DNA from: a virus | Taxonomy: Duplodnaviria > Heunggongvirae > Uroviricota > Caudoviricetes | Strand: one strand, 5' to 3' | DNA: 11,387 bases | IMG/VR virus record: IMGVR_UViG_2563366866_000006 | In this document: positions 1-6,487 of the stretch, one piece after another | How positions within the stretch are numbered: the stretch's first letter is position 1 | Layout of the letters: every line of letters starts with the position of its first letter | Notes under the pieces: generated by a model | The model's database searches: none | The model's input: the letters and a program-made list of their open reading frames with translations, nothing else | Told to the model about the DNA's origin: nothing | Made by a program: the position numbers and the translations under genes

Positions 1-288
1 TTTAAGGGATTAATTCCTTCAAAAGTAAAATCTCGCCCGCAATGTTGTGACGATGACGCGATGATCATTTGCGGGTGCATGGCCCGTCTGAAAAATAACA
101 ACAGCGATTTGCATGATTTGTTAGTGGACTATTATGTCGGCGGCATGACTTTTATGGCGCTTGCGCGTAAGCATGGTAGATCTGATTGTTGGATTGGCAG
201 GATGCTCCAAAAAGCTGAGGGCGTAGTGGAGGGCATGCTGATGGTGTTGGATCTCAGATTGGAGATGGATGCTGATTGTTTGAGATAA
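1..288 (+). CDS. Late antiterminator Q (phage 21/82/DLP12 QuuD-like), C-terminal part; the 5' end lies outside the window
   Basis: Frame 1 is open from base 1 ([31 protein letters not shown]...) to the TAA at 286-288, so the 75-aa ORF in the track is only the tail of a longer protein. The Cys-rich [12 protein letters not shown] segment and the following sequence match my recollection of DLP12-type Q proteins. Its position directly upstream of the late promoter and lysis genes fits Q. Confidence 0.75.
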
Positions 289-300
289 TTAAAGGAAAAG

Positions 301-350
301 TTGCTGTCTGGTTATCATTAGACTAATGTTTCAAATGTTAGAATCGCAAC
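301..350 (+). promoter_or_regulatory. Candidate late promoter pR' (extended -10 element TGtTAGAAT at 336-344) about 50 bp downstream of the Q stop
   Basis: Sequence atgTTAGAATcg has a TGn-TAGAAT extended -10 at 336-344. No good -35 is present, which is typical of Q-dependent late promoters. Its distance from the Q stop resembles lambda. It could instead belong to the IS200 left end. Confidence 0.3.
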
Positions 351-386
351 GTAGTTATGATCATATAACAGCTTGTTCCCTGATTT

Positions 387-415
387 AGCCAGCCTCCCCA
401 AAGGCTGGTTTTTTT
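387..415 (+). terminator. IS200 left-end hairpin with rho-independent-terminator shape (stem 389-394/403-408, loop tccccaaa, T-run 409-415)
   Basis: ccagcc...ggctgg is a perfect inverted repeat followed by seven T residues, read directly from the sequence. In IS200 this structure is known to block read-in transcription. Confidence 0.7.
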
Positions 416-425
416 GTGCACAGAA

Positions 426-448
426 AACCCCCAGCTAGGCTGGGGGTT
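426..448 (+). promoter_or_regulatory. IS200 tnpA 5' UTR stem-loop (aacccccagc-tag-gctgggggtt), probable translational control structure
   Basis: A perfect 10-bp stem with a 3-nt loop, read directly. Its C-rich arm is complementary to the AAGGGGG Shine-Dalgarno sequence just upstream of the tnpA start at 559. Confidence 0.55.
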
Positions 449-558
449 CCGGAAAGCTTTCAGCTTTGAGCCAGTTATTAAAACCCCTTTTGATTTGTTA
501 AAACACCTTGCGGTCTGGCAACTGCAAGTGTCAAACAAGAAATCAAAAGGGGGTCCCA

Positions 559-1017
559 ATGGGGAACGAAAAGAGCTTAGCGCACACCCGATGGAACTGT
601 AAATATCACATAGTTTTTGCGCCAAAATACCGAAGACAGGTGTTCTACAGAGAGAAGCGTAGAGCAATAGGCAGTATTTTGAGAAAGCTGTGTGAGTGGA
701 AAAGCGTACGGATTCTGGAAGCTGAATGCTGTGCAGATCATATCCATATGCTTGTGGAGATCCCGCCTAAAATGAGCGTATCCGGGTTTATGGGATATCT
801 GAAAGGGAAAAGCAGTCTGATGCTTTACGAGCAGTTTGGTGATTTGAAATTCAAATACAGGAACAGGGAGTTCTGGTGCAGAGGGTACTACGTCGATACA
901 GTGGGTAAGAACACGGCGAAGATACAGGATTACATAAAGCACCAGCTTGAAGAGGATAAAATGGGAGAGCAGTTATCGATTCCCTATCCGGGCAGCCCGT
1001 TTACGGGCCGTAAGTAA
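559..1017 (+). CDS. tnpA: IS200 transposase TnpA (HuH Y1 transposase, about 152 aa)
   Basis: Translation MGNEKSLAHTRWNCKYHIVFAPKYRR...HIHMLVEIPP...YIKHQLEEDK carries the HuH motif (HIH) and the catalytic Tyr region, and matches my memory of Salmonella/E. coli IS200 TnpA almost exactly. The start is placed at the internal ATG at 559, preceded by AAGGGGG, rather than at the ORF-track start at 508. Confidence 0.93.
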   Translation: MGNEKSLAHTRWNCKYHIVFAPKYRRQVFYREKRRAIGSILRKLCEWKSVRILEAECCADHIHMLVEIPPKMSVSGFMGYLKGKSSLMLYEQFGDLKFKYRNREFWCRGYYVDTVGKNTAKIQDYIKHQLEEDKMGEQLSIPYPGSPFTGRK

Positions 1018-1090
1018 CGAAGTTGGATGCAAATGTCAGATCGTGTGCGCCTGTTAGGGCGCGGCTGGTAAGAGAGCCTTATAGGCGCAT

Positions 1091-1127
1091 TTGAAAAACC
1101 TCCGGCTATGCCGGAGGATATTTATTT
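1091..1127. terminator. Bidirectional intrinsic terminator hairpin (cctccggc-tat-gccggagg), mainly serving the minus-strand lipocalin gene
   Basis: Perfect 8-bp GC-rich stem at 1099-1106/1110-1117. On the minus strand it is followed by TTTTTCAA, about 40 nt downstream of the lipocalin stop. On the plus strand it is followed by a weaker ATATTTATTT. Confidence 0.6.
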
Positions 1128-1155
1128 CTAATAAGTATCAATCCGGTTAGGTATT

Positions 1156-1680
1156 TTATTGTTTGACCCATAATAGTTCATTGACATTGAATCCCAATTT
1201 TTGAGCAGTACGCACATAGTCTGCTTTTACATTATCTGGAATAGTTGGAGTCCGTGCCAGAATCCATAGGTATTCTCTGTTCGGACCACTGACAAGAGCA
1301 TACTTATACTCATCATCCAGTTTGATTACATTATAGCCACCATAGAAGGGGCCAAAAAACGAAACCTTCAACGCTGCAGTTGTATTATCTCCTGTAAAGT
1401 ATGCTTTACCTTCGCTCTCGCTCCATTTGTTTTTCGTTGGGTCATATCCACGATTAAGTACACTAATCCCTCCGTCGTTCCGTTTCCCATAAGTGGCGCT
1501 GACCTGTTCCAGACCACGTTCAAATCGGTTCTCAAGCCGAGCTATTTCATACCATTTTCCGAGGTAGCGGTTGGTGTCAAAATTTGTAATCGGCTGCACA
1601 CCTTTAGGTGGTGTCGGGGCCTTACATGCTATCAGAGTGAAAGAGAGTGCAATGCCAGTCAACACAGGCCATAACTTCAT
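1156..1680 (-). CDS. Outer-membrane lipocalin lipoprotein, Blc family
   Basis: 174 aa. Signal peptide with a lipobox (FTLIAC, Cys19). Conserved lipocalin core YLGKWYEIARLENRFERGL...KVSFFGPFYGGYNVI...YLWILARTP closely parallels E. coli Blc. ATG at 1678-1680 with an AGGA about 8 nt upstream. Confidence 0.9.
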   Translation of the reverse strand: MKLWPVLTGIALSFTLIACKAPTPPKGVQPITNFDTNRYLGKWYEIARLENRFERGLEQVSATYGKRNDGGISVLNRGYDPTKNKWSESEGKAYFTGDNTTAALKVSFFGPFYGGYNVIKLDDEYKYALVSGPNREYLWILARTPTIPDNVKADYVRTAQKLGFNVNELLWVKQ

Positions 1681-1872
1681 AATATATCCTGTACTTTTGA
1701 TAGTTGAGAGTAAGTATTAAAGATAGATGATTACTACCGATCACCTAAAGAACTTTCCTACTATATTAGGAATAGTCCATAACAAAAAAATTGTCAGTGA
1801 TGACGGCAGAAAGGCAGTTTAGGTCGTGTACTACACTGTTAACCTGTTAATGAATTAGTCAAGGGGTAGGCA

Positions 1873-2832
1873 ATGATAAAAAAACCTGTCGTTGGGATCA
1901 GTGGTTGTTTGGCCGGTTCTTCTGTCCGTTTTGATGGTGGTCACAAAAGAGCTAGCTTTTTAATGGACAAATTACTGGAATGGGTAACATTCAAACCAGT
2001 ATGTCCGGAAATGGCTATAGGGCTTCCAGTTCCGCGTCCTGCTCTACGTCTTGTTCGCTCGGCGCAAGGAAATATACGGATGTGTTTCAGCCACGACCAG
2101 AATGAGGATGTTACAGAGAAAATGACAGAGTTTAGTCGTTCTTATCTTGACAAATTAAAGGATGTATCGGGATTTGTGGTTTGTGCAAAATCTCCTAGCT
2201 GTGGTATGGAACGCGTGCGTGTATATGATGAAAATGGTAATCGTGGTCGTAAAGATGGAGTGGGACTATTTACGAGCACGTTGATGGAAAGGTTTTCCTG
2301 GCTACCGGTTGAAGAGGATGGGCGACTACATGATCCAGTGCTTCGTGAAAACTTTGTTGAAAGAGTATTTGCTTTACATGAGCTCAATCATCTTTATAAA
2401 GCGAAATTATCAAGAAGGGAATTATTAGCTTTTCATAGCCGTTATAAGCTTCAGTTGTTGGCGCATAGCCAGGCCGGTTATAAAGAGATGGGGCCATTTG
2501 TGGCTGCAATACATGAGTGGGCAGACCTTGAATCATACTTTGAGGTGTATCGTGAGAAGCTGATGGCGATTCTCAGAAAACCTGCATCACGTAAAAATCA
2601 CACGAATGTGCTGATGCATATACAGGGATATTTTAGTAACTGCTTAAATACACGTCAGCGTAAAGAGTTGAGCGATGTTATACTTAACTATCGAGCTGGC
2701 ACGCTACCTCTTCTTGCGCCATTAACTTTGCTGAAGCATTACTTGGCAGAGTATCCTGATGATTATTTGCTTATACAGAATTACTTCCACCCCTATCCTG
2801 ATGAACTGGCTCTAAGACTCTTGGTGAACTAG
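1873..2832 (+). CDS. DUF523 (TudS-like [4Fe-4S] thio-nucleobase desulfidase domain) fused to DUF1722; YbgA-family protein
   Basis: 319 aa. N-terminal half has three Cys in the spacing expected for TudS cluster ligands (GISGCLAG Cys12, CPEM Cys44, CAKSPSCG Cys105), plus a fourth Cys at 110. C-terminal half resembles the helical DUF1722 domain. RBS AAGGGG lies 6-7 nt upstream of the ATG. Confidence 0.8.
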   Translation: MIKKPVVGISGCLAGSSVRFDGGHKRASFLMDKLLEWVTFKPVCPEMAIGLPVPRPALRLVRSAQGNIRMCFSHDQNEDVTEKMTEFSRSYLDKLKDVSGFVVCAKSPSCGMERVRVYDENGNRGRKDGVGLFTSTLMERFSWLPVEEDGRLHDPVLRENFVERVFALHELNHLYKAKLSRRELLAFHSRYKLQLLAHSQAGYKEMGPFVAAIHEWADLESYFEVYREKLMAILRKPASRKNHTNVLMHIQGYFSNCLNTRQRKELSDVILNYRAGTLPLLAPLTLLKHYLAEYPDDYLLIQNYFHPYPDELALRLLVN

Positions 2833-3150
2833 GCGTTTGGAATGCACCAACAAGATGATTTTCTCCTTAGAGAATGTTTACAATCGTAAAAACTTCACTA
2901 TGATATCTATAGTTGTACAGTTTGTAAAAAAATTCGGTTCATGCTTAAGGTAATGTTAATATGTTAATTAATGATTAATAATCAAGCAAGCCAAAAATAG
3001 TTCTGTTTAATCTAGTATTACATAAATATTTTAAAGAAAATATCAAAGTTCATGATGATATAATGAGATTTTTCTCATTGAAAATATGGCAATTTTAATA
3101 TTTCCACCTATACTTACTTAACTCAAATCTAATTATGTCAGGTGGATGGT

Positions 3151-3882
3151 ATGCCATGCATATGTTCTATCATTTTGGTTTTGAACTCGTTTGATATCCG
3201 GCTTGGTAAAGAAAAAATCTCTCTAAAAAAAGGAAGTGTTGTTGCTATAGAATACAATTTAAAAGTTTTCTTTTCTTCAAATAAAGATAATATAATGATC
3301 GTGGATATTGAAGAGAAAACAGTTAATGACTTCTTTAAAAACAATACACTCTCACCTTTTTCTGTAAGAAGATTTTATTCAGCATACTTGATAGTAAACT
3401 GTACAGACTATTCATTGTTAAAGAACTTGATAGGTTGCTTGAATTGTGATGGTGAAACTACGGCTGTAGTTAAAAATTCAATATTATTTGCATGTCTTGC
3501 TATTTTATCCTCGGAAAAAATGTTTCAGAGTTTTTTGTTTGGGTGTCTTAATAGTTTAGGAAGCAAAGTTAAGGCTATTATTCACTCGGACATATCTGCA
3601 GCATGGAGACTTTGTGATATTTCTTCAAGACTATGTCTGAGTGAAAGTTTGTTAAAAAGAAAACTAAAACACGAAGGCTTATCATTTAGCAAATTAATTC
3701 TTGAAGAACGAATGGTGATGGCTGAAAGGTTATTAAGCTACAATTTCTATCCTGTTGGGAAAGTTGCTAAAATATGTGGTTATGAAAGCGCGTCATATTT
3801 TATAAGTGTTTTCAGAAGATATTTTGGTGTTCCCCCCCATGAATATTCATCAAGATTTTTTTTAGAAAAAGGCAAGATGTAA
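3151..3882 (+). CDS. AraC/XylS-family transcriptional regulator (AppY/GadX/PatE-like), horizontally acquired
   Basis: C-terminal AraC-type double helix-turn-helix (...LCLSESLLKRKLKHEGLSFSKLILEERMVMAERLL...VGKVAKICGYESASYFISVFRRYFGVPPHEY). The gene and its 310-bp upstream region are strikingly AT-rich. ATG at 3151 with AGGTGG 5 nt upstream is preferred over the in-frame GTG at 3142 used by the ORF track. Confidence 0.85.
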   Translation: MPCICSIILVLNSFDIRLGKEKISLKKGSVVAIEYNLKVFFSSNKDNIMIVDIEEKTVNDFFKNNTLSPFSVRRFYSAYLIVNCTDYSLLKNLIGCLNCDGETTAVVKNSILFACLAILSSEKMFQSFLFGCLNSLGSKVKAIIHSDISAAWRLCDISSRLCLSESLLKRKLKHEGLSFSKLILEERMVMAERLLSYNFYPVGKVAKICGYESASYFISVFRRYFGVPPHEYSSRFFLEKGKM

Positions 3883-3943
3883 CGTGATGCGTTTTGATGA
3901 TTTTGTAATTTTCATATTTGATGATTATATGATGCTTTCAGCT

Positions 3944-3973
3944 ACGCCAGAATAATCGCTGGCGTTTTTCTTT
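3944..3973 (+). terminator. Rho-independent terminator downstream of the AraC-family gene, upstream of the holin (possibly serving as tR')
   Basis: Stem acgccag (3944-3950) / ctggcgt (3959-3965) with loop aataatcg, followed by TTTTTCTTTT. Confidence 0.6.
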
Positions 3974-4049
3974 TCTAATGTAACTTCTGTATCTTTCCCT
4001 CTTTCATTCCAAACCGTGTACACCATCCGTTATTCGCGGAGGTGAGGCT

Positions 4050-4265
4050 ATGAAATCCATGGACAAGTTAACAACGGGCATTGCCTACGGCACCTCTGCA
4101 GGCAGTGCTGGCTACTGGTTTTTACAGTGGCTTGATCAGGTCAGTCCGTCACAGTGGGCGGCGATTGGAGTGCTTGGAAGCCTTGTGTTGGGTTTTCTCA
4201 CTTATCTGACAAACCTTTATTTCAAGATTAAAGAAGATAAGCGTAAGGCTGCGAGAGGTGAATAA
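4050..4265 (+). CDS. S: Class II holin, phage 21 S21-type pinholin with dual-start motif (Met1/Met4)
   Basis: 71 aa, [53 protein letters not shown]..., matching S21/EssD as I recall them. Two transmembrane segments. The M-K-S-M start gives the antiholin (71 aa) and holin (68 aa) forms. Strong RBS GGAGGTGAGG. Confidence 0.95.
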
Positions 4266-4762
4266 TGTCGCCATCATTACGCAAGGCTGTAGCAGCTGCT
4301 ATTGGTGGTGGGGCTGTTGCCATAGCGTCTGTGCTCATCACTGGTCCGAGTGGTGACGATGGTCTGGAAGGTGTCAGCTACATACCATATAAAGATATTG
4401 TTGGTGTATGGACTGTATGTCACGGGCATACAGGAAAAGACATCATGCTCGGTAAAACGTATACCAAAGCAGAATGCAAAGCACTCTTGAATAAAGACCT
4501 TGCCACTGTCGCCAGACAAATTAACCCGTACATCAAAGTCGATATACCGGAAACAACGCGCGGCGCTCTTTACTCATTCGTTTACAACGTGGGTGCTGGC
4601 AATTTCAGAACATCGACGCTTCTTCGCAAAATAAACCAGGGCGATATCAAAGGCGCATGTGATCAGTTACGTCGCTGGACATATGCTGGCGGTAAGCAAT
4701 GGAAAGGTCTCATGACTCGTCGTGAGATTGAGCGTGAAATCTGTTTGTGGGGTCAGCAATGA
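4265..4762 (+). CDS. R: SAR (signal-anchor-release) endolysin, T4-lysozyme-like (GH24), phage 21 R21-type
   Basis: 165 aa. Gly/Ala-rich N-terminal SAR domain ([20 protein letters not shown]). Catalytic triad at the canonical positions E35, D44, T50. Start overlaps the holin stop. Confidence 0.95.
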
Positions 4763-5220
4763 ACAGAGTAACCGCGATTATCTCCGCTCTGGTTATCTGC
4801 ATCATCGTCTGCCTGTCATGGGCTGTTAATCATTACCGTGATAACGCCATTACCTACAAAGCCCAGCGCGACAAAAATGCCAGAGAACTGAAGCTGGCGA
4901 ACGCGGCAATTACTGACATGCAGATGCGTCAGCGTGATGTTGCTGCGCTCGATGCAAAATACACGAAGGAGTTAGCTGATGCGAAAGCTGAAAATGATGC
5001 TCTGCGTGATGATGTTGCCGCTGGTCGTCGTCGGTTGCACATCAAAGCAGTCTGTCAGTCAGTGCGTGAAGCCACCACCGCCTCCGGCGTGGATAATGCA
5101 GCCTCCCCCCGACTGGCAGACACCGCTGAACGGGATTATTTCACCCTCAGAGAGAGGCTGATCACGATGCAAAAACAACTGGAAGGAACCCAGAAGTATA
5201 TTAATGAGCAGTGCAGATAG
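4759..5220 (+). CDS. Rz: Rz inner-membrane spanin (i-spanin)
   Basis: 153 aa from the ATG at 4759 ([21 protein letters not shown]...), with an N-terminal transmembrane helix and coiled-coil periplasmic domain. ATGA overlap with the endolysin stop. The ORF-track start at 4747 is a GTG four codons upstream. Confidence 0.9.
4979..5161 (+). CDS. Rz1: Rz1 outer-membrane lipoprotein spanin (o-spanin), embedded in the +1 frame of Rz
   Basis: 60 aa, [24 protein letters not shown]... with lipobox VVGC and a proline-rich stretch ([16 protein letters not shown]). Lies entirely inside Rz, as in lambda and phage 21. Confidence 0.9.
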
Positions 5221-5251: not shown

Positions 5252-5545
5252 TTATTGTGAGCAATAGACACGCGCTTCCAGCGGAGTATAAATGCCTAAA
5301 GTAATAAAACCGAGCAATCCATTTACGAATGTTTGCTGGGTTTCTGTTTTAACAACATTTTCTGCGCCGCCACAAATTTTGGCTGCATCAACAGTTTTCT
5401 CCTGTCCAATTCCCGAAACGAAGAAGTGATGGGTGATGGTTTCCTTTGGTGTTACTGCTGTCGGTTTGTTTCCAACAGTAAACGTCTGTTGAGCACATCC
5501 TGTAATAAGCATTGCCAGAGCGGCAGAAAACAACATTTTTTTCAT
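5252..5545 (-). CDS. bor: Bor lipoprotein (serum-resistance, lysogenic-conversion protein)
   Basis: 97 aa from the ATG at 5543-5545 (MKKMLFSAALAMLITGCAQQTFTV...GLLGFITLGIYTPLEARVYCSQ), near-identical to lambda Bor as I recall it. Lipobox ITGC. The ORF-track start at 5593 is a longer upstream extension that I reject. Confidence 0.92.
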   Translation of the reverse strand: MKKMLFSAALAMLITGCAQQTFTVGNKPTAVTPKETITHHFFVSGIGQEKTVDAAKICGGAENVVKTETQQTFVNGLLGFITLGIYTPLEARVYCSQ

Positions 5546-5904: not shown

Positions 5905-6099
5905 TTATTCATCATCACTTTGGATTGATGTACATGCTCTCTTTTCTGACGTTAGTCTCCGACGGCAGGCTTCAATGACCCAGGCTGAGAAATTCCCAGA
6001 CCCTTTTTGCTCAAGAGCGATGTTAATTTGTTCAATCATTTGGTTAGGAAAGCGGATGTTGCGGGTTGTTGTTCTGCGGGTTCTGTTCTTAGTTGACAT
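5905..6099 (-). CDS. ylcI: Small YlcI-like (DUF3950) protein, probably a ribbon-helix-helix DNA-binding protein with an arginine-rich N-terminus
   Basis: 64 aa, MSTKNRTRRTTTRNIRFPNQMIEQINIALEQKGSGNFSAWVIEACRRRL.... The pattern (beta-strand RNIRF, then two helices) fits an RHH fold. A homologue sits just upstream of the Nu1 homologue in DLP12 by my recollection. Weak RBS. Confidence 0.65.
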   Translation of the reverse strand: MSTKNRTRRTTTRNIRFPNQMIEQINIALEQKGSGNFSAWVIEACRRRLTSEKRACTSIQSDDE

Positions 6100-6245
6100 G
6101 AGGTTGCCCCGTATTCAGTGTCGCTGATTTGTATTGTCTGAAGTTGTTTTTACGTTAAGTTGATGCAGATCAATTAATACGATACCTGCGTCATAATTGA
6201 TTATTTGACGTGGTTTGATGGCGTAGATGCACGTTGTGACATGTA

Positions 6246-6487
6246 GATGATAATTATTATCATTTTGTGGGTCCTTTCCGGCGATCCGACAGGTTACGGG
6301 GCGGCGACCTCGCGGGTTTTCGCTATTTATGAAAATTTTCCGGTTTAAGGTGTTTCCGTTCTTCTTCGTCGTAACTTAATGTATTTATTTAAAATACCCC
6401 CTGAAAAGAAAGGAAACGACAGGTGCTGAAAGCGAGCTTTTTGGCCTCTGTCGTTTCCTTTCTCTGTTTTTGTCCGTGGAATGAGCA
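6246..6487 (+). other. cos: Lambda-type cos site: cosQ (about 6246-6297), cosN with the 12-nt cohesive end GGGCGGCGACCT at 6298-6309, and cosB with Nu1-binding R elements and an IHF site
   Basis: ...gtgggtcctttccggcgatccgacaggttacg | gggcggcgacct cgcgggttttcgc... matches the lambda right and left termini as I recall them. R3 is at about 6351-6368 (tgtttccgttcttcttcg), R2 inverted at about 6407-6423 (agaaaggaaacgacagg), R1 at about 6448-6464 (ctgtcgtttcctttctc), with an AT-rich IHF-like site between R3 and R2. Nu1 starts 190 bp after cosN, as in lambda. Confidence 0.9.

Follow-up and report, generated by a model that had tools for sequence, protein, structure and literature searches.

A blc–rudS–araC-type moron cassette between antiterminator Q and the holin of a lambdoid prophage

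The stretch of DNA analysed here (the window, 11,387 nucleotides in full) comes from the IMG/VR virus record IMGVR_UViG_2563366866_000006 and covers the late region of a prophage of the lambdoid type, with a lambda-type cos and a Q21-family Q. The list of open reading frames (ORFs) and the Pfam matches place the stop of the antiterminator gene Q at 288 and the start of the holin gene S at 4050. An insertion sequence (IS) of the IS200 type, a Blc-type lipocalin gene on the minus strand, a DUF523–DUF1722 gene (rudS in the following) and an AT-rich gene of the AraC family lie between them, all at the places given in the initial annotation. We read this interval, with good though not full confidence, as a late-regulatory unit followed by a three-gene stress-tolerance moron cassette and a strain-specific IS200, the cassette being expressed in the lysogen and also read through by late transcription. 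In kind the cassette is ordinary, a common, annotated and partly characterised moron in a well-known slot. The features of the interval are the following:

1-288, plus strand: 3′ part of the antiterminator gene Q (Pfam PF06530, E = 3e-19), with its stop codon at 286-288; the window begins inside the gene
301-344, plus strand: candidate late promoter pR′ and a −10-like element, read directly from the sequence at consensus level
387-415, plus strand: tR′-like intrinsic terminator (terminator scan and folding)
416-1126, plus strand: IS200 insertion (comparison with the empty site in locus L001, Pfam, Rfam and hairpin folds)
1156-1680, minus strand: blc-like gene for an outer-membrane lipocalin lipoprotein of 174 amino acids (Lipocalin_2, NCBIfam Blc and a match to 3MBT)
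1681-1872, no strand: divergent blc/rudS control region, of putative function (alignment with the upstream regions of chromosomal lipocalin genes)
1873-2832, plus strand: rudS, a TudS(DUF523)–DUF1722 fusion of 319 amino acids (Pfam PF04463 and PF08349; tblastn identity to a protein of phage 1H12)
2833-3150, no strand: AT-rich spacer before the regulator gene (composition, promoter scan and comparison of variants)
3151-3882, plus strand: AraC/XylS-family regulator of 243 amino acids (HTH_18 and HTH_AraC; RefSeq start)
3944-3975, plus strand: intrinsic terminator closing the cassette (terminator scan and folding)

Positions 1-4300 of the window were searched against 5,426 complete Escherichia coli genomes, with a required coverage of at least 80%. 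The Q-to-S arrangement, without the IS200, was found in 821 of them, and the many 100%-identical matches cover 84% of the query, which is everything except the IS200. The cargo alone (1132-4049) has a match in 1,151 of these genomes, and a more sensitive blastn search finds the araC-like gene near full length in 996. Eleven phage records, representing ten named isolates, show the order Q, blc, rudS, araC-like gene, holin at 99.9-100% identity: Lambda_2E9, 4B5, 2G7a, 1H12 (two records), ev203, ev110, ev087, ev066, ev245 and ev058. The phage IdasGreatGrand matches at 90%. The matched phages are infant-gut lambda-like coliphages of PMC6969025, where Mathieu et al. listed blc (“a bacterial lipocalin”) among the morons of more than half of 19 such phages, and the phage records carry PGAP or RAST annotation. 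The initial annotation had been unable to match the gene set to characterised phages or described modules. Given these counts, a lipocalin already listed as a moron and a RudS protein already assayed (see below), that statement has to be withdrawn, and the genome and phage searches together with the existing annotation identify a common, already annotated moron module, the very outcome that the initial annotation had named as speaking against its own claim.

The three cargo genes also travel together, a point that the initial annotation had marked for checking. In the 80 IMG/VR loci found via RudS, the order Q–blc–rudS is constant. Next after rudS come the araC-like gene and the holin gene, wherever the contig extends far enough and the regulator gene, which is sometimes lost, has been kept. 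These loci fall into three allele groups, in which RudS is 100, 93 and 92% and the regulator 100, ~82 and ~76% identical. All three cargo genes are under purifying selection, dN/dS being 0.08 (blc), 0.15 (rudS) and 0.26 (regulator gene), and blc is intact in 79 and rudS in all 80 of the viral loci. The explanation that the interval is neutral hitch-hiking DNA with decaying passengers, or chromosome misjoined by assembly, can draw on a composition unlike that of the phage backbone and on the insertion sequences that accumulate in the region (IS200 here; IS2, IS1 and IS3 elsewhere). We give it next to no credence, since the selection values and the intact genes refute it and identical joints occur in hundreds of complete genomes and in the 11 records of isolated phages, which excludes the assembly error at the junctions that the initial annotation had considered. 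The cassette is also found in strain S1, in a Qin-type cryptic prophage of the order relBE-hokD-rem-ydfU-Q-(blc-rudS-HTH)-essD-ydfR-rrrQ, with all three cargo genes intact and rzpQ and ynfN frameshifted. The Q–S slot of the K-12 Qin prophage holds cspB/cspF. Short contigs with the cassette (L054 and L073; RudS 88-92%, holin, lysozyme) are filed under “Candidatus Nanosynbacter sp.”, a Saccharibacteria metagenome-assembled genome, and are almost certainly a binning contaminant.

The first 127 bp after Q (289-415) look like the phage's own pR′/pause/tR′ unit and not like cargo. The Q protein, complete in L001 (125 amino acids, 5911-6288), matches the Q21 structures 6P18/6JNX (E = 2e-8) and phrog_79, “anti-termination protein Q-like”, and by its sequence belongs, distantly, to the Q21 family. 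A candidate pR′ can be read directly after its stop codon, with a −35 element TTGCTG at 301-306, a 17-bp spacer and a −10 element TAATGT at 324-329. It is followed by TGtTAGAAT (336-344), which may act as the sigma-dependent pause site or else be a second −10 candidate of the extended type, and a direct repeat AATGTT (325-330 and 335-340) straddles the −10-like region. The promoter scan did not list the candidate pR′ at 301-329, and the assignments of promoter, pause element and Q-binding repeats are tentative. The terminator at 387-415 is solid: its hairpin (387-410) has a 9-bp GC-rich stem followed by seven T, or eight T in the uninterrupted site, and folds with −14.2 kcal/mol (z = −3.5). 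The whole Q-proximal segment, promoter-like site and terminator, is conserved across all three module variants. The order of elements after the Q stop matches the scheme of a Q regulatory cassette, namely the Q gene, pR′, a sigma-dependent pause element and a terminator (bioRxiv 10.1101/651190), and hairpin terminators are ignored by Q-modified polymerase (bioRxiv 10.1101/651190). The initial annotation had implied that pR′ and tR′ are missing directly after Q, which does not appear to be the case, with a promoter-like site, a pause candidate and a strong terminator at 301-415. As these 127 bp resemble a normal pR′/pause/tR′ unit, the cargo would lie downstream of tR′.

The IS200 sits inside the T-run of tR′, in the orientation of late transcription, and leaves the hairpin and seven T intact. 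The window is 711 bp longer than the empty site in L001, the additional sequence being ~416-1126; the empty site reads GGCTGG-T8-CTAATAAG and the window GGCTGG-T7-IS200-...TTTATTTCTAATAAG. The element has the hallmarks of an IS200: a Y1 transposase gene, tnpA (Y1_Tnp, Pfam E = 4e-38), at 559-1017 on the plus strand, the characteristic RNA of the 5′-untranslated region (family STnc490, Rfam RF01405, 146 bits) at 426-549, which is the only RNA family that Rfam finds in the whole window, hairpins at 426-447 and 1099-1117 as judged by folding, a length of ~0.7 kb, and no inverted repeats. Its junction occurs in only 6 genome records among the 5,426 genomes, and the records that bear it belong to two diverged module variants. 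Ec-U3 (L166 1380-2130) has an IS200 in the same T-run site, with flanks 87-95% and an IS200 96.6% identical to those of the window. The shared site would reflect either an insertion hotspot or an old insertion that has been lost elsewhere by precise excision. CB7286, the sole 100% match to the window, carries an additional IS2 between blc and rudS (L157 9888-11116). Insertion sequences accumulate in the cassette, IS200 and IS2 being joined by IS1 and IS3 in further strains (H118, H140 and H154). The isolated phage Lambda_ev058 carries an IS200 in its early operon, between ren and ninB, and on this analogy, and given that hairpin terminators do not stop Q-modified polymerase, the IS200 at tR′ would not be expected to block late expression.

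The first cargo gene, blc-like and antisense to late transcription, encodes a lipocalin with a lipoprotein signal peptide and the lipobox L-I-A-C (Cys19). It matches Lipocalin_2 (E = 2e-43) and the NCBIfam Blc subfamily (315.5 bits against a cutoff of 267), and a comparison with E. coli Blc (3MBT) gives E = 2.6e-69, with ~65% identity estimated from the alignment. The sequence between blc and rudS contains TTCCTA-N6-TAGGAA (1755-1772), a perfect palindrome. This control region was aligned with the sequences upstream of the lipocalin gene in 13 chromosomal loci and in two other phage variants. The palindrome block takes the form GAATATTC-N12-GAATATTC-like in the chromosomal loci, and a −10-like box CTACACTT lies ~35 nt before the chromosomal lipocalin start, its phage counterpart being TAATACTT (window 1719 to 1712, minus strand). 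Both blocks are common to the phage and to Klebsiella, Enterobacter, Kosakonia and Buttiauxella, where they are found between blc and a merR gene of the MlrA-like type. The palindrome may have stayed behind as an orphan operator, as the phage does not encode the cognate regulator. E. coli itself has a full-length paralogue of the MerR (MlrA-like) regulator of the chromosomal clusters, namely MlrA.

RudS, encoded in the direction of late transcription, contains the domains PF04463 (residues 7-149) and PF08349 (residues 192-309), and its cysteines 12, 44 and 110 match three [4Fe-4S]-ligand positions in Table 1 of PMC11417400. A tblastn comparison finds it 100% identical to a protein of phage 1H12, which is RudS_vir (1H12 gp66) of the same study. 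There, Jamontas et al. defined RudS as a TudS–DUF1722 fusion that removes 4-thiouridine (s4U) from tRNA, reported that s4U in tRNA was reduced when RudS_vir was overexpressed in E. coli, and found that RudS overexpression shortened the growth delay of E. coli under ultraviolet A (UVA) light (PMC11417400). E. coli has been said to lack RudS (PMC11417400, PMC13602947). This holds for K-12, whereas about a fifth of the sequenced strains do have the gene: near-full-length rudS is present in 1,064 of the 5,426 genomes, and every context examined was this prophage cassette. The published RudS UVA experiments used BL21(DE3), which has a remnant of the cassette in a Qin-type prophage (NC_012892.2 1588183-1589579). 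There, Q and the blc-like gene (intact) are followed by 147 bp of rudS, at which point IS3 interrupts the gene.

Many Enterobacterales have a relative of RudS on the chromosome, at 68-76% identity, and Blc, in those loci where it lies nearby, is 73-81% identical. The neighbours of chromosomal rudS were mapped by tblastn and Pfam. In Klebsiella, Serratia, Pectobacterium, Yersinia, Lelliottia and others, a blc gene on the minus strand stands next to the series merR(MlrA-like), short-chain dehydrogenase/reductase, amine oxidase, DUF1365, cyclopropane-fatty-acid-synthase-like gene, DUF2878, DUF3833 and rudS. Enterobacter, Kosakonia and Buttiauxella show the shorter form of minus-strand blc followed by merR–rudS, and Kluyvera has minus-strand blc and rudS alone, between yejH and yejK, which is the phage arrangement. 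The cluster regulator is an MlrA paralogue, with CarH as its next-best NCBIfam match over the N-terminal helix-turn-helix region, and is consistent with the published link of rudS to light-responsive MerR/LitR operons (PMC11417400). The shared order and the shared blocks of the control region suggest that the phage blc/rudS pair represents the two ends of this MerR(MlrA-like)-linked chromosomal cluster, from which the interior and the cognate regulator would have been deleted and the candidate operator retained. The closest species representatives reach ~76% for RudS and ~81% for Blc and the phage copies are lower in GC, so that the capture does not appear to be recent. A literature search for a light-inducible connection between LitR, lipocalin and photolyase returned nothing usable. 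Homology of the module to orf70-orf319-orf242 of Salmonella SPI-2, orf242 being AraC-like, was considered and set aside: the neighbour of ORF319 has been described as MerR-family (PMC11417400) and the genome scan returned no Salmonella, so that only the RudS link stands. The serum-resistance genes orf10/orf6 of phiv142-3 (PMC7724020) were likewise discarded as cassette genes, the published primers being absent from the window and from the fetched loci.

The araC-like gene seems to have been added separately. Its GC content is 31.3% (26% at third codon positions) and that of the preceding spacer 26.7%, against 43-44% for blc and rudS, 48.3% for the whole window and 52-58% for the nu1, terminase and portal genes. 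This agrees with the compositional contrast noted in the initial annotation, and its idea of a patchwork origin is borne out by the differences in composition, divergence and ancestry between the blc/rudS pair and the regulator gene. A separate history of the latter is suggested because, besides its GC of 31% versus 43%, dS between alleles is 0.37, compared with 0.09-0.19 for rudS and blc, and homologues are found at other positions in prophages.

The regulator ORF spans 3142-3882, with the RefSeq start at the ATG at 3151. The protein has a C-terminal double helix-turn-helix (HTH_18) and, according to an AlphaFold2 model (pLDDT 84.8) compared with Foldseek, an N-terminal β-rich domain of the Rns/ToxT type; the top full-length Foldseek matches are Rns, CsvR and ToxT, with E ~1e-11 over ~250 columns. 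The nearest solved sequences are the DNA-binding domain of GadX, which Foldseek aligns at 42% identity, and CsvR, Rns and ToxT. The best full-length NCBIfam match is YdeO, with 112.7 bits against a cutoff of 348, and GadX scores 98.7 against 500. As both scores fall below the equivalog cutoffs, the protein is, on sequence grounds, a paralogue within the GadX/YdeO/PatE/Rns group and not YdeO or GadX itself. It is 53% identical over 235 residues, and an estimated ~75% within the DNA-binding domain, to ECs_0287 of the Sakai prophage Sp1, an AraC-type gene at the right end of Sp1 at thrW, which corresponds to OI-8/CP-933H. A review places PatE (z0321) in OI-8/CP-933H (PMC10877973), and ECs_0287 is by its position PatE. 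PatE, PsrA and PsrB are AraC-like proteins from prophages of enterohaemorrhagic E. coli (EHEC) that activate the GAD genes of acid resistance, and the characterised members of the GadX/YdeO/PatE/Rns group activate acid-resistance or virulence genes silenced by H-NS (PMC10877973). By analogy, the regulator probably activates H-NS-silenced stress genes, those of acid resistance. The E. coli Nissle “PatE” (CIW80_12240) was tried as this gene and is not used as evidence, its tag mapping to ordinary chromosome near xyl.

The regulator family is narrow, with 26 clusters, mostly from E. coli. A PatE-type gene (52%) is found in phage ev099 between tail-fibre assembly and int, and further 52% matches are found in mEp332 and PhiR70_1. 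A 40% relative lies between Q and tRNA-stx2k in phiSTEC1575-Stx2k (L170 4501-5214), and a 36% relative directly after a lambda-type Q. In phiSTEC1575-Stx2k, the holin gene is immediately preceded by an anti-adaptor gene of the iraM type in antisense orientation. The regulator is of full length (237-248 amino acids) in 61 of the 80 viral loci; in the others it is shortened, absent or interrupted by the end of the contig. No part of the module diverges more than the spacer before it (2833-3150), with 59% identity between variants compared with 87-95% for the genes. In the promoter scan this spacer contains weak, consensus-level promoter-like sites at 2877-2904 and 3086-3114.

The cassette is closed by a terminator, a hairpin at 3944-3965 with a T-run behind it (−11.3 kcal/mol, z = −3.1), which leaves 75-105 bp to the start codon of the holin gene. 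The three module variants have all conserved this terminator, whereas the porin-cargo phage has none. Together with the gene identities, the architecture, the distribution, the purifying selection and the ancestry described above, it leads to the reading that we consider likely. In the lysogen, the cassette would be transcribed from its own promoters, that is, from the ancestral divergent blc/rudS region and from promoters in the AT-rich spacer, which is probably bound by H-NS, and the terminator at 3944 would keep these transcripts from the holin. A second Blc would then be placed at the outer membrane, RudS would erase the near-UV-sensitive s4U8 of tRNA, an activity that K-12 is without, and the regulator would act on acid-resistance genes in the manner of PatE, PsrB and YdeO. 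Upon induction, Q-modified polymerase starting at pR′ would pass tR′, the IS200 hairpins and the 3944 terminator, and rudS and the regulator gene would be transcribed in sense with the lysis genes, and blc in antisense.

The same arrangement can be read the other way round, as a lytic-phase auxiliary module in which rudS and the regulator gene serve mainly for late expression from pR′ and any expression in the lysogen is incidental. Both genes are co-oriented between the candidate pR′/tR′ and the holin, the promoter scan shows no strong sigma-70 promoter in front of rudS, RudS shortens the UVA growth delay upon overexpression, and within the phage collection RudS occurs nowhere but in this module. 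We nevertheless find this, the main rival, unlikely, because a terminator placed just before S makes sense only for lysogen transcripts that have to be barred from the holin, the ancestral divergent promoter/operator region has been retained, a Qin-type prophage that has decayed and can no longer lyse normally still has all three genes intact, and blc is antisense to late transcription. A more specific proposal within the lytic phase, which we hold to be doubtful, is that RudS is a late-expressed “s4U eraser” of tRNA upon induction by UV or sunlight: Q-driven read-through would flood the cell with RudS, and removal of s4U8 would avert the cross-linking of tRNA, the accumulation of uncharged tRNA and the ppGpp (guanosine tetraphosphate) signalling that throttle late phage protein synthesis. 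If this were true, lysogens amounting to about a fifth of E. coli strains would have a near-UV physiology that work based on K-12 denies the species.

Several observations weigh against the reading of a lysogen-expressed, stress-tolerance cassette. RudS_vir showed the weakest desulfidation per protein level among the RudS proteins tested, under overexpression (PMC11417400). Roughly one in five viral loci has a truncated regulator gene or none at all, so that this gene is not essential to the cassette. Its candidate targets are guessed from a paralogue at 53% identity, and no locus-tag match stands behind the identification of ECs_0287 as PatE. Promoter-like sites are no more frequent than in shuffled sequence, the promoters being consensus-level guesses, and the pR′/pause assignment is provisional, Q21 being only distantly related to the Q of the window (E = 2e-8).

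The cassette is followed by the lysis genes and a bor-family gene, as follows:

4050-5220, plus strand: lysis genes (Pfam, ORF list and RefSeq annotation of an identical region)
4050-4265, plus strand: class II (P21-type) holin
4265-4762, plus strand: lysozyme
4747-5220, plus strand: Rz
4979-5161, plus strand: Rz1, a 60-amino-acid lipoprotein ORF embedded in Rz
5252-5545, minus strand: bor-family gene after Rz, in RefSeq the increased-serum-survival lipoprotein Iss (WP_000738423.1)

Beyond Rz, the ORF list and Pfam give Bor/Iss on the minus strand, YlcI, and then Nu1, terminase A, W and the portal. The bor/iss gene is a second lysogenic-conversion gene flanking the lysis cassette, antisense like blc. 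A lambda-type cos, GGGCGGCGACCT, is found at 6299-6310, upstream of nu1, which leaves ~2-5 kb between the cassette and the right end of the genome as packaged. The nearness of bor/iss, the outer-membrane porin that occupies the same slot in related phages, and the many membrane morons of lambda-like phages that are exclusion factors (PMC6969025) would be in line with a role in conflict between phages or between phage and host, the lipocalin masking a receptor (superinfection exclusion) or the de-modification of tRNA serving as defence or counter-defence. Such a role seems to us very improbable, as the PADLOC defence models give no match for any of the three cargo proteins, and blc and rudS have ordinary, orthologue-like chromosomal relatives in a conserved non-phage cluster. 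Each of the three proteins falls into its own PHROG of unknown function. We also know of no nuclease or defence system reported to depend on s4U8.

The new points concern the derivation of blc/rudS from a MerR-linked cluster, the kinship of the regulator to PatE, the placement of the cargo relative to tR′ and to an insulating terminator, and the presence of rudS in about a fifth of the strains. Since rudS reaches these genomes via a prophage, differences between strains in tRNA s4U and in the near-UV response may be prophage-determined. The phage would have taken the two ends of a MerR-controlled stress cluster and combined them with a regulator of PatE type, which would make it a concrete case of regulator replacement. 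The regulator itself is an uncharacterised and widespread paralogue of the acid-resistance and virulence regulators of EHEC, present in many commensal and extraintestinal strains.

The closest known systems are the phages 1H12, Lambda_2E9, 4B5, 2G7a and the ev series, which are 99.9-100% identical to the window from Q to the lysozyme gene and have the same gene order and terminators; the 1H12/Lambda_2E9 group differs in being without the IS200 at this site. RudS_vir is the same protein as RudS of the window, with the same domain fusion and the same Cys12, Cys44 and Cys110. Chromosomal rudS is usually found beside a MerR/LitR-type regulator, whereas the window has no such regulator and an AraC-type gene follows. 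The Klebsiella-type chromosomal clusters share with the phage the divergent blc/rudS orientation and the conserved cis block, while the phage copy has lost merR and six interior genes, has a GC content of 43% and is located in a prophage late operon.

The slot itself is exchangeable. The initial annotation had assigned the cargo to the Q–S slot of lambdoid phages, and this is supported by related phages with a late region of the same kind that carry a porin gene there (ev243); a porin gene is likewise found in ev099, mEp332 and the PhiR phages. The nmpC gene of DLP12 and the ompD/ompC-like porin morons, for instance that of ev243, share with the window the slot, flanked by a Q of the Q21 family and a holin of the P21 type, as well as the antisense orientation of an outer-membrane gene. 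The porin phages carry other cargo, and both their Q allele and the sequence right after Q differ from those of the window, which would place the left boundary of the swap in or at the Q/pR′ unit and the right boundary ~45 bp before the start of S. PatE, PsrA and PsrB are, like the window regulator, AT-rich AraC/XylS proteins of ~245 amino acids from lambdoid prophages, although the PatE-type genes lie at the tail-fibre/int end of their prophages and the window regulator in the Q–S slot. The Q-tRNA-stx-S region of phiSTEC1575-Stx2k also has its cargo downstream of Q and read by late transcription, as proposed here for the cassette, with the difference that the window contains no toxin gene and that the Q family and the lysis genes are not the same. 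In Stx phages, stx lies downstream of tR′, as the cargo of the window appears to do.

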